Below are positions 42,813 to 45,359 of a DNA stretch of 64,000 nucleotides, one piece after another (within the stretch, counting starts at the first letter, position 1; each line of letters begins with the position of its first letter). The position numbers were made by a program, and so were the translations under genes. Location: assembly GCA_016196625.1 (NCBI GenBank), contig JACPXH010000007.1:86461-150460 (forward strand). Reading direction: 5' to 3'. This DNA is from Candidatus Parcubacteria bacterium. GTDB taxonomy: Bacteria; Patescibacteriota; Minisyncoccia; JACPXH01. Below the pieces are notes generated by a model. The model was given only the letters and a program-made list of their open reading frames with translations. It was not told the origin of the DNA and searched no databases.

Positions 42813-42914
42813 TCGATGCTTCGCATCGGGAATGTCTAATGACTAATGCCGAATGTCGAATTCGTTTTCGTCATTCGTCATTCGAAATTCGGCATTTCCG
42901 CTGCGGAGCAGCGG
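42813..42914. repeat. palindromic repeat family A (gtctaatg subfamily) abutting 23S 5' end
   Basis: cgatgcttcgcatcgg-gaatgtctaatgactaatgccgaatgtcgaattcg...cgaaattcggcatttcc-gctgcggagcagcgg. Confidence 0.65.
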
Positions 42915-43186
42915 GTGTGCGTTGCGAGGTAAACGGGATCGTAAAATAAAGCGTATGGTGGATGCCTTGACACCAAACGGCGATGAAGGACGTGGCGTGG
43001 CTGCGATAAGCTGCGGGGAGCTGCCGAGCAAGCTTTGATCCGCAGATGTCCGAATGGGGAAACCCAGCATGGCAAACCCATGTTACCCGCCTAAGTTTTT
43101 GGGCCTATTGAGAAGGGTCTAAAAACTTAGGCGGGAGCGCACCCGGGGAAGTGAAACATCTCAGTACCCGGAGGAACAGAAAACAA

Positions 43187-43285
43187 TGCTAGCTTTCTAG
43201 CTTTTAGCTTCCTAGCTTTTTAGGCGCGAGTGAACTGTCGTTCGTTCCTAGGAAGCTAAGAAGCTAATCAGCTAAGAAGCTAGCC
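43187..43285. repeat. agct-rich palindromic expansion inside 23S (family B)
   Basis: tgctagctttctagcttttagcttcctagc...gctaagaagctaatcagctaagaagctagc; related copy at 52316-52385. Confidence 0.6.
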
Positions 43286-43330
43286 CATTCCCTTAGTAGC
43301 GGCGAGCGAACCGGGAAAAGCCCAAACCAG

Positions 43331-43420
43331 CCCGAAGCTTCGCTTCGGGAATGTCTAATGTCGAATCCGTTTCGTCATTCGTTAATTAGGAATTAGTCAT
43401 TTCCGCAGCGGAGCTGCGGG
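43331..43420. repeat. family A palindromic insertion in 23S
   Basis: gaagcttcgcttcgggaatgtctaatgtcgaatccgtttcgtcattcg...tcatttccgcagcggagctgcgg. Confidence 0.65.
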
Positions 43421-43789
43421 TTGGGGTTGTAAGAGTATATCGCTTCTTTTCTTTCATCGTATCCCCCGCCTCCATTCGGATGGCGGATTAGGGGTACGGA
43501 GAAAGTTGAGAAAAGAAGAACACCTTGGAGCCGCGTTAGCCGAACACCCCTGGAACGGGTGGCCAGAGAGCATAATAGCTGCGTAGGCGAAAACGTTGGC
43601 TCGCTTCTCGATATAAATCTTGAGTACTGCCCCGCCCGGCTGCGGGGTAGGAAGCAGGGGCGACTACGCCCCAAGGCTAAATACGTTTGGTGATCGATAG
43701 TGAACTAGTACCGTGAGGGAAAGGTGAAAAGCAGCCCGGTGAGGGCGGTGAAATAGTACCTGAAACCATACGCTGACAAGGAGTCAACG

Positions 43790-43889
43790 CCGGTGCTTCG
43801 CACCGGGAATGTCAAATGTCAAAGCTCAAATGTCAAAAGCGATTTGGCATTTGGATTTAGTCATTTGGATTTCCGATGCGGAGCATCGG
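43790..43889. repeat. family A palindromic insertion in 23S
   Basis: ccggtgcttcgcaccgggaatgtcaaatgtcaaagctcaaatgtcaaa...catttggatttccgatgcggagcatcgg. Confidence 0.7.
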
Positions 43890-44577
43890 TTATGGCGTGC
43901 CTATTGAAGAATGAGCCAACGACTTTATCTCGTCCGCAAGTTTAACCCCGTTAACGGGGGGAGGCACAGGGAAACCGAGTCCGAATAGGGCGTGGCGATC
44001 CTTTCGTACTATGCTCATCTTTCGATGAGCAGGGTGCGAATTGATCGCTAGCGGGCGGGTTAAGACCCGAAGCCAGGCGAGCTACCCATGGCCAGGGTGA
44101 ACTTCGGTGATAAACCGGAGGGAGGCCCGAACCCATTGGCCGTGCAATACCATGGGATGAGCTGTGGGTAGAAGTGAAAAGCTAATCGAGCCTGGGAATA
44201 GCTGGTTTTCTCCGAAATAGTTTTAGGACTAGCCTCGAGCGTTCACGATCGGAGGTAGAGCACTGGATGGATACGGCTGCCGATGAGGTACTGCATCCAA
44301 TCAAACTCCGAATGCCGATCGTTCAAGAGCTCGGGAGTCAGACGATGGGGGCGAAGCTCCGTCGTCGAGAGGGAAACAGCCCGTGATCGTCACGTAAGGT
44401 CCCTAAATCTCCACTCAGTGCAAGTAAGGAAGTGTCCCGCCTTAGACAGACAGGAGGTTGGCTTAGAAGCAGCCACCCTTTAAAGAGTGCGTAACAGCTC
44501 ACTGTTCTATGGCAACTACGGCGGGGCGCGCCGAAAATGTATCGGGGCTTAAGTGGAGTACCGAACGTACGGATCAG

Positions 44578-44727
44578 CCGATGCTTCGCATCGGGAATGT
44601 CAAATGCCAAAGCTCAAATGTCAAGTCAAATCCAAAGTTCAAATGCCAAAGTCGTTTGGTTTTTGGATTTTGATCATTGATTTGTCATTTGGATTTTGAA
44701 ATTTGGATTTCCGGTGCGGAGCACCGG
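44578..44727. repeat. family A palindromic insertion in 23S (longest copy)
   Basis: ccgatgcttcgcatcgggaatgtcaaatgccaaagctcaaatgtcaagtcaaatccaaag...tttggatttccggtgcggagcaccgg. Confidence 0.7.
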
Positions 44728-45271
44728 TTGGTGGTAGGAGAACGTTCCCTGTGCAGTGAAGCCGCATCCGCGAGGAGCGGTGGAGCGCAGGGAAGTGCAA
44801 ATGTTGGCATGAGTAACCGCAAGTCCGGTGAGAGTCCGGACCACCGCAAGTCTAAGGTTTCCTTGGCAATGGCAATCATCCAAGGGTGAGGCGGGCCTAA
44901 GGCGATGGCGAAAGCCGGAGCTGATGGACAGCCGGTTAATATTCCGGCCCCGCCCGAACGACCAACGGGGCGACGGCGCAGCGTAGATCGAGCGTGTTAT
45001 TGGATTTGCGTCCCCGAGCCAGCGCGCCTTTCAGGCAAATCCGGAAGGCTGCCTTTGATGGCGAGCGCACGCACAGGGGTAAGGTTGACCGCAAGGTCGG
45101 CCAATTCGATCGAAACAGCGTCCCAGAAAACCCCCTAGGATTAATCGTTCGGGCGTCCGTACCGCAAAACCGACACAGGTAGACGAGGCGAGTAGCCTCA
45201 GGTGAACGGGTGAGTCCTCGTTAAGGAACTCGGCAAAACAGCGGTCGTAAGTTCGCGATAAGACCTCCCTG

Positions 45272-45359
45272 CCCGATGCTTCGCATCGGGAATGTCAAAT
45301 TTCAAAGCTCAAATGTCAAAAACGATTTGGCATTTGGATTTCCGCTGCGGAGCAGCGGG
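45272..45359. repeat. family A palindromic insertion in 23S
   Basis: cccgatgcttcgcatcgggaatgtcaaatttcaaagctcaaatgtcaaaaacgatttggcatttggatttccgctgcggagcagcgg. Confidence 0.7.

Follow-up and report, generated by a model that had tools for sequence, protein, structure and literature searches.

The stretch of DNA considered here (the window) is 64,000 nucleotides of contig JACPXH010000007.1, from a candidate phyla radiation (CPR) genome, a Candidatus Parcubacteria metagenome-assembled genome (MAG); the closest relatives of its RNase III carry the labels Parcubacteria or Sungbacteria. The 23S rRNA gene in this window is about 7 kb long because it holds several introns, with hairpin inserts in its 5' half and group I introns in its 3' half. 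Our subject is a small palindromic module, in which two GC-rich hairpins flank an AU-rich stem, and which occurs five times in this gene and directly upstream of it (Table 1). All five copies of the repeat family proposed in a preliminary description of this sequence were recovered where they had been reported, on the plus strand and between 88 and 150 nt long, and we number them c1 to c5.

The five copies share both of their ends. The 5' junction motif GGGAATGTCWAATG, with up to two mismatches allowed, has six matches against 0.57 expected, and six were reached in none of 100 shuffles, while the 22-nt 3' module is 86-100% identical across all five copies. Profile searches of the 64 kb with nhmmer returned the 5' module and the 3' module exactly five times each, all on the plus strand. 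Each copy folds far more strongly than its own shuffles (z = -6.1 to -9.95). At gathering thresholds no Rfam family matched the elements, and a permissive Rfam search of them returned just sub-threshold generic hairpin models of the microRNA-precursor kind. We considered the possibility that the copies are group I introns and rejected it, as the catalytic core model is not matched in the elements; the two group I introns that Rfam does place in the window (32364-33306 and 46469-46736) are both outside them.

Read as RNA, the module consists of a 17-nt GC hairpin, CCGNNGC-UUC-GCNNCGG, followed by GGAAUGUC, the AU-rich stem, AUUUCC, and a second 17-nt GC hairpin, CCGNNGC-GGA-GCNNCGG. We call the two GC hairpins clamps; the second is approximately an inverted copy of the first, and their loops, UUC and GGA, are mutually complementary. 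The first clamp had been described as a GC hairpin with a UUCG loop, which is not what the sequence reads: the stem has either 7 bp, closed by a UUC triloop, or 6 bp, closed by a CUUCG loop, and a canonical C(UUCG)G tetraloop is ruled out. The AU-rich stem varies in length between copies, and its arms are made of tandem 7-nt repeats (lag-7 identity 0.60, vs 0.27 in shuffles). Two subfamilies are present in this genome, one with CAAAUGU-type heptads (c3, c4 and c5) and one with CUAAUG/CGAAUG-type heptads (c1 and c2). The 5' arms of c5 and c3 share 94-95% identity, and the 3' arm of c5 is shorter by two heptads (14 nt).

The five copies had been described as insertions in and next to the 23S rRNA, and four of them do lie within the gene at helix tips, as proposed, each in place of an apical loop (H25, H45, an H63-equivalent hairpin, and the hairpin at Rfam large-subunit (LSU) model positions 274-295). 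Copy c1 belongs to the leader, outside the 23S; it ends 20 nt short of LSU model position 1, and the 18-bp stem in which leader and trailer pair for processing follows immediately after it. In the Rfam LSU alignment c2 is an 82-nt insert at about model position 283, in a hairpin that we take to be part of the H15/16 region. The hairpin that hosts c4 is Rfam model 1206-1226, that is, helix 45. The hairpin that hosts c5, preceding GCGACUGUUUAUCAAAAACACAGG, is presumably the counterpart of H63 in E. coli, and relatives have a short tetraloop hairpin at this site.

Table 1. Features of the window discussed in the text (coordinates in the 64,000-nt stretch)
Feature	Coordinates	Strand	Remarks
gatB heptad stretch	13146..13232	+	one-armed, A-rich, 7-nt-periodic; in gatB 12810-14480
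rpmF-nusB spacer	26741..26929	+	heptad arms 26741-26780 and 26862-26925 around a nested GC-rich palindrome; without GC clamps
nusB-rnc spacer	27445..27572	+	imperfect AU-rich heptad hairpin; z -2.7; additional to the two spacers first described
rnc (RNase III)	27591..28280	+	Ribonucleas_3_3 4e-38, dsrm 1e-11; catalytic and dsRNA-binding domains
rnc-rpsP spacer	28283..28432	+	heptad hairpin with CAAAGCTCAAATG and truncated 5' clamp CCGCTTCGCGG; z -2.6
16S rRNA	31075-34886		group I intron within
Copy c1	42813..42914	+	102 nt; 23S 5' leader; CTAATG/CGAATG-heptad subfamily; fold z -6.8
23S processing stem, 5' strand	42923..42940	+	18 bp, perfect complement of 49889-49906
Host 23S rRNA gene	42935..49888	+	~7 kb; Rfam LSU model position 1 = 42935
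Copy c2	43331..43420	+	90 nt; tip of Rfam LSU model 274-295 hairpin; z -6.5
Copy c3	43790..43889	+	100 nt; in place of helix 25 loop; z -8.6
Copy c4	44578..44727	+	150 nt, longest stem; in place of H45 loop; z -9.95
Copy c5	45272..45359	+	88 nt; H63-equivalent hairpin; z -6.1
23S processing stem, 3' strand	49889..49906	+	pairs with 42923-42940
5S rRNA	49954-50062		

The hairpin is kept at the RNA level, as strand asymmetry and covariation show. Among the pairs predicted in the five copies, 27 of 211 are G·U, in each of the five the sense RNA exceeds the antisense RNA in stability by 7-28 kcal/mol, and canonical copies lie in rRNA sense in 13 of 13 cases; the fold is therefore maintained in the transcript and is more than a DNA palindrome. 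In an alignment of 13 clamp pairs from non-independent copies, pairing in the two local hairpins is 100% and 98.9%, and covariation is seen at the variable clamp position, with AU in nine, GC in three and GU in one of the first hairpins, and AU in five, CG in five and GC in two of the second. The closing pair of the host helix is paired in 12 of the 13 copies, by four pair types. Copy c2 carries the same A-U swap in both of its GC hairpins, and two copies have coordinated changes across both hairpins that are compatible with local hairpins and with a clamp-to-clamp rod alike. Nearest-neighbour energies prefer the rod by 5-18 kcal/mol, yet the rod as sole fold is contradicted at the informative columns of the alignment and was rejected. 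As modelled, the module would form a four-way junction with no linker nucleotides and could also zip up into a 21-24-bp rod.

Relatives of the AU-rich part of the module lie outside the rRNA genes. Pfam matches confirmed the gene order rpmF, nusB, rnc, rpsP, and AU-rich heptad hairpins are found in all three spacers. The core CAAAGCTCAAATG has six matches vs 0.16 expected, among them one at 26748 (rpmF-nusB) and one at 28305 (rnc-rpsP); the recurrence earlier proposed for these two spacers thus holds for the heptad core but not for the 3' GC hairpin, which is missing there. In the rpmF-nusB spacer GGGAATGTCAAATG is found on the minus strand, in the AU-rich arms, and the rnc-rpsP copy alone among the spacer copies retains a truncated 5' hairpin (CCGCTTCGCGG, 28283-28293). 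The rnc gene is intact, with family hairpins on both sides. Two relatives whose RNase III is 86-87% identical (L025 and L026; sampled sequences carry numbers with the prefix L) have family hairpins in the same spacers. By eye, the nusB-rnc hairpin of L025 is about 90% identical to the core of c4, the window's H45 copy, and the rnc-rpsP hairpin of L026 has a clamp-like start, CGATGCCCGGCATCGGAATGCCAAAT. Scans for promoters and terminators found nothing on the plus strand of the spacers beyond chance, and a promoter or terminator role for the spacer copies was rejected; the rpmF-nusB-rnc-rpsP genes are therefore probably co-transcribed, with the hairpins inside the transcript.

Unrelated GC-rich palindromes are nested at the apex of several spacer hairpins, some of them in relatives. 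Those at 26780-26862 of the window and at 3240-3390 of L025 have the form gtcatcctga(g/a)...caggatga; such palindromes seem to make up another small family, which also resides in hairpin apices. In gatB, the heptad stretch corresponds to a 29-aa in-frame insert that is absent in T. maritima GatB (3al0_B). Over 35 nt it has 77-83% identity to a spacer arm, the value being 83% for the 5' arm in the nusB-rnc spacer; it has one arm only and may be a repeat-derived coding insert, which we regard as a possible relative only.

To see how the module is distributed, we scanned genome and metagenome collections with the clamp pattern; the 23S genes of relatives were also sampled independently of the element, via homologues of an intron-encoded LAGLIDADG protein. 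In the pattern scans the clamp sequence was found in CPR rRNA genes only. Matches in L018, L029 and L032 were judged to be chance. A Terrybacteria MAG (L001) has clamps at an H10-type site, at H25 and at H63, and variant-clamp copies at H45 and near model position 650. Clamps are further present at H25 in L002 and L006/L007, at H63 in L003, and at a site near model position 225 in L015/L017, as well as in helix 17 of the 16S rRNA of L004/L011/L014, with a further variant in 16S helix 6. NCBI, JGI and ENA assemblies, made independently and from different samples, show the same modules at the same helices.

Three relatives that are syntenic with the window (L021, L022 and L023; EF-P, MscS-like, 23S) bear on the suggestion that relatives might lack inserts at the same helices, and they do. 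H25 is empty in L022 and L023, where it is an ordinary GCCC-GYAA-GGGY hairpin (GAAGCCCGYAAGGGYGACC), and L021 has a miniature two-clamp version there; H63 is empty in L021, L023 and L007 and occupied by a second clamp type in L022, which gives a filled/empty pair in GCCCGAC-GCAA-GUCGGGC (L021) vs GCCCGA-[element]-UUGGGC (L022). The preliminary description had set against mobile insertion a pattern of identical rRNA positions throughout the lineage with no intergenic copies. What we found instead were empty sites, occupied sites at other helices and in the 16S rRNA, and relatives of the element in mRNA spacers, and insertion is therefore favored. Similarity scores are 0.95 for c3 vs c5 and 0.93 for the H10-site vs the H63 copy of L001, but 0.65 for the H63 copy of the window vs that of L001, so that on sequence comparison a copy resembles those at other helices of its own genome more than those at its own helix in other genomes. 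The likeness within a genome is from recent copying or gene conversion, and growth and shrinkage are by whole heptads.

The clamp pattern had no match in viral contigs. A heptad AU hairpin with CAAAGCTCAAATGTCAAATC was seen in a phage contig (L030, IMGVR_UViG_3300031586_000134, 5129-5321; also L028, 4700-4990), between the portal gene and the next open reading frame (ORF) of a contig with an SPP1-type portal, capsid and adaptor and 53% GC. As read from these sequences, the core motif is common to CPR genomes and a phage. We also noted in L002 (CAZBTX010000004.1) a tRNA-Thr(UGU) and a tRNA-Ile(GAU) at 3354-3521, inside a 23S insert of about 780 nt near model position 650; this would be either a 23S split by a tRNA-bearing spacer or a misassembly.

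Taking these observations together, we consider it probable that the copies are a family of small, non-autonomous palindromic insertions that land in hairpin loops, are tolerated at helix tips because the element RNA protrudes from them, and are probably excised by RNase III. What the sequences show is a dispersed insertion family: its DNA has been placed in a leader and in apical loops of rRNA helices, with clamp-less or half-clamped forms in the rpmF-nusB-rnc-rpsP spacers. With the hairpin maintained in the transcript, each copy protrudes from a surface helix tip and leaves the rRNA core undisturbed. The stems, or the 21-24-bp duplex formed between clamps, would be substrates of RNase III, and the four internal copies would be removed without ligation, giving pieces of about 396, 369, 688 and 544 nt and a 3' remainder; the hairpins flanking rnc may serve as processing or autoregulatory sites.

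For the cleavage step and the fragmentation downstream of it we hold a cautious preference, which we infer from several features of the locus. Excision seems likelier than retention of expansion segments because the sites include those of classical intervening sequences (IVS; H25 and H45), the duplexes are long, and rnc is intact. RNase III in particular is suggested by the presence of family hairpins in the leader and in conserved positions flanking rnc, and by that of a family hairpin between phage genes in the portal/capsid contig. Phages such as T7 exploit host RNase III sites.

Several points weigh against an RNase III-processed mobile family. It is the distribution that argues for mobility, since we found no target-site duplication and no conserved flank or target motif in 13 flanks, and no transposase, linked or otherwise, in the 64-kb window. 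The AU stems of c2 and c5 are short or asymmetric, that of c5 being 12 bp above a 15-nt one-sided loop, and in these two copies only the clamp-to-clamp duplex would, as modelled, offer RNase III two helical turns; at the informative columns, however, the clamp-to-clamp rod is unpaired in 6 and in 8 of the 13 copies, and covariation there favors the local hairpins. The covariation counts themselves come from only 13 canonical copies, which are not independent, and what looks like compensatory change could also arise from quasi-palindrome correction of the DNA. Finally, the spacer copies fold only moderately relative to shuffles (z about -2.7) and show little strand asymmetry in fold energy.

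One may go further and suppose that mobile RNA-structured palindromes target existing hairpin apices wherever these occur, in both rRNA subunits, in mRNA spacers and in each other, which would give the nested forms; that they present a common RNase III signal; that their position around rnc couples RNase III synthesis to the load of pre-rRNA; that the module switches between four-way junction and rod; and that the family is shared horizontally, phages included. We offer this wider scheme as speculation, and as a whole it is rather unlikely.

The alternative that survives best is that the copies are retained as expansion segments, that is, as surface rods in the mature 23S rRNA with the GC hairpins forming a four-way junction at the base. 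We regard it as unlikely. In its favor, the sites coincide with those of eukaryotic expansion segments (ES7 at H25, ES15 at H45 and ES27 at H63), the covariation backs two local hairpins, and hence a perfect linker-free four-way junction, c5 and c2 have no long regular AU duplex, and the strand asymmetry shows that an RNA fold is kept. A structural role is harder to reconcile with the patchy presence among close relatives and the fast turnover of the arms. Nearest-neighbour energies prefer the rod, and members of the same family lie in the leader and between mRNA genes, places in which there is nothing to be 'retained'. Inserts in CPR rRNA genes are moreover removed from transcripts, according to the summary of Brown et al. 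(2015) given in PMC11270868.

It could also be that nothing has moved, and that the copies are old extensions of helix tips, homogenized by gene conversion and grown by heptad slippage, the absences in relatives being losses. Changes by whole heptads (c5 being c3 minus 14 nt), near-identical interiors within one genome, the occupation of H25 in four lineages, and the lack of both a target-site duplication and a transposase all fit this picture. We nevertheless think it improbable. Identical 17-nt clamps occur at no fewer than eight 23S sites, in the 16S, in the leader and in an mRNA spacer, with different subsets in different genomes, and gene conversion cannot create such dispersed clamps because it requires a homologous target that is already there; the empty sites are ordinary short tetraloop hairpins; and the core is found in a phage contig as well.

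The GC hairpins could also be inverted repetitive extragenic palindromes (REPs) of a REPIN-type element, whose movement as single-stranded DNA would depend on a RAYT (Y1/HUH) transposase from another part of the genome. Two short inverted palindromes around a spacer that together form a long hairpin agree with the definition of REPINs (PMC3116915, PMC3337134), the profile of the 5' module matches the reverse complement of the 3' modules, the covariation of the local hairpins is such as a hairpin-binding transposase would impose, and Y1 transposases leave no target-site duplication. A relative (L020) does encode a Y1_Tnp protein flanked by palindromes of its own, of sequence GATTGAAGTCSGACTTCAATC; these show no relation to the clamps and do not occur in the window. 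We found no Y1_Tnp gene in the 64-kb window; a weak tblastn match of the L020 transposase at 7970-8158 is NusG, not a RAYT. No conserved tetranucleotide adjoins the element, the copies are within genes rather than extragenic, and the G·U strand asymmetry and fixed orientation suggest selection on RNA, so that a REPIN-type origin strikes us as quite improbable. The L020 locus (CAYPFS010000025.1, 11630-12398) has a RAYT-like gene with four flanking copies of the 21-nt GATTGAAGTCSGACTTCAATC, one of them inside its own coding sequence; its sequence suggests a REP/RAYT system of a CPR genome, one that has no relation to the rRNA element.

That the copies are chimeric repeats from assembly or binning can be dismissed almost entirely: although the rRNA operons of MAGs are often misassembled, the same modules stand at the same helices in the independent NCBI, JGI and ENA assemblies, in register with the host helices and with compensating closing pairs.

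Among known systems, the element is closest functionally to the RNase III-type IVS of 23S rRNA, architecturally to REPINs, and in lifestyle to the Rickettsia palindromic elements (RPEs) and the Correia elements. The RNase III-type IVS of Salmonella, Campylobacter, Leptospira and Coxiella likewise replace the loops of H25 and H45 and are AU-rich extended stem-loops of about 90-150 nt, sporadic among relatives, in hosts with an RNase III gene and, as here, a single rRNA operon and a reduced genome. In the window, c3 and c4 occupy the H25 and H45 apical loops, with an extended duplex, sporadic presence and an encoded rnc, whereas c1, c2 and c5 sit elsewhere. Unlike those IVS, one family here fills four helices and the leader of a single gene and extends to the 16S and to mRNA spacers, and its members have conserved twin GC hairpins and heptad arms; their excision is a prediction. 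The classical IVS of H25 and those of H45 are not known to be related to each other in sequence.

REPINs resemble the element in their inverted palindromes around a spacer, long hairpin, non-autonomy, lack of target-site duplication and similarity within a genome (PMC3116915, PMC3337134). They are extragenic and high in copy number, whereas here the 64 kb sampled have only five clamped copies, of which the 23S gene contains four, and there is the G·U asymmetry at the RNA level; the window encodes no cognate RAYT, and that of the relative L020 is flanked by a different REP. An identity as a miniature inverted-repeat transposable element was also considered, the ends being inverted repeats, and was rejected, since the flanks are complementary strands of the host helix rather than direct repeats and no flank is conserved. 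RPEs are small palindromes in reduced genomes that are tolerated within genes, including RNA genes, at surface or loop positions, and the one-armed in-frame insert in gatB, although its kinship is unproven, may be a parallel; their sequences are unrelated to ours, and they lie mostly in protein genes. The Correia elements of Neisseria (PMC2649163) are inverted-repeat miniatures of about 100-150 bp whose hairpins in transcripts are bound or cut by RNase III, with effects on neighboring genes, but they lie between genes, are flanked by a TA duplication, and contain an IHF site and ends that form promoters; we found none of these features in the elements here. The expansion segments of eukaryotes and archaea (ES7, ES15 and ES27) extend from the same helix tips but are retained, GC-rich and stable within lineages, in contrast to an AU-rich, patchy and dispersed repeat family.

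The rRNA locus has other inserts and repeats that do not belong to this family. Hairpin inserts outside the family lie in the 23S at 43086-43135, 43186-43284 and 43446-43520. The second of these is a perfect-looking palindrome of TAGCTTNN repeats with an 8-nt period (z = -8.3), near LSU model position 225, and the corresponding site in relatives has clamped family members or nothing. A GGNTGAAGATATAGTCYAYGC box, which we interpret as a core motif of group I introns, has seven copies within 32048-49647, two of them in the 16S and the other five in the 23S. Just two introns reach the Rfam threshold, so several more are probably present; LAGLIDADG ORFs include one at 46782-47453. The best Rfam small-subunit score of the 16S is with the archaeal model. 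Between the 16S and the 23S is a gap of about 8 kb (34887-42934) with two tRNAs (at 35145 and 40023) and several protein genes, an MscS-like channel gene being the last. Two further repeat pairs were noted, one of 73 nt (30574-30646 and 53484-53557, 83-95% identity), of which one member is about 450 nt upstream of the 16S, and one of 58 nt (24855-24912 and 25623-25680, 84% identity).

Short non-intron inserts at 23IS2 and 23IS4 (H25 and H45) of CPR 23S rRNA genes have been reported before, with a role for RNase III proposed (Tsurumaki et al. 2024, PMC11270868); that study applied a 100-bp cut-off, left short inserts 'uncharacterized' and described no repeat family. What is new here is that short inserts in CPR rRNA genes form one conserved, dispersed and apparently mobile family, which we did not find described in the literature.

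For the interrupted rRNA genes of the CPR, introns have been catalogued, while short inserts were merely guessed to be IVS. If the inserts are one dispersed family with defined ends, their origin would be copying and not the independent growth of helices. The family suggests that miniature mobile DNA is active in genomes as small as about 1 Mb. Searches can use the module as a marker; surveys based on rRNA and alignments of CPR rRNA can be led into error by it. Its conservation makes it a concrete test RNA for studying how uncultivable organisms process their rRNA and, if the copies are excised, the 23S rRNA of this bacterium would be in at least five pieces, which could be checked in existing metatranscriptomes.

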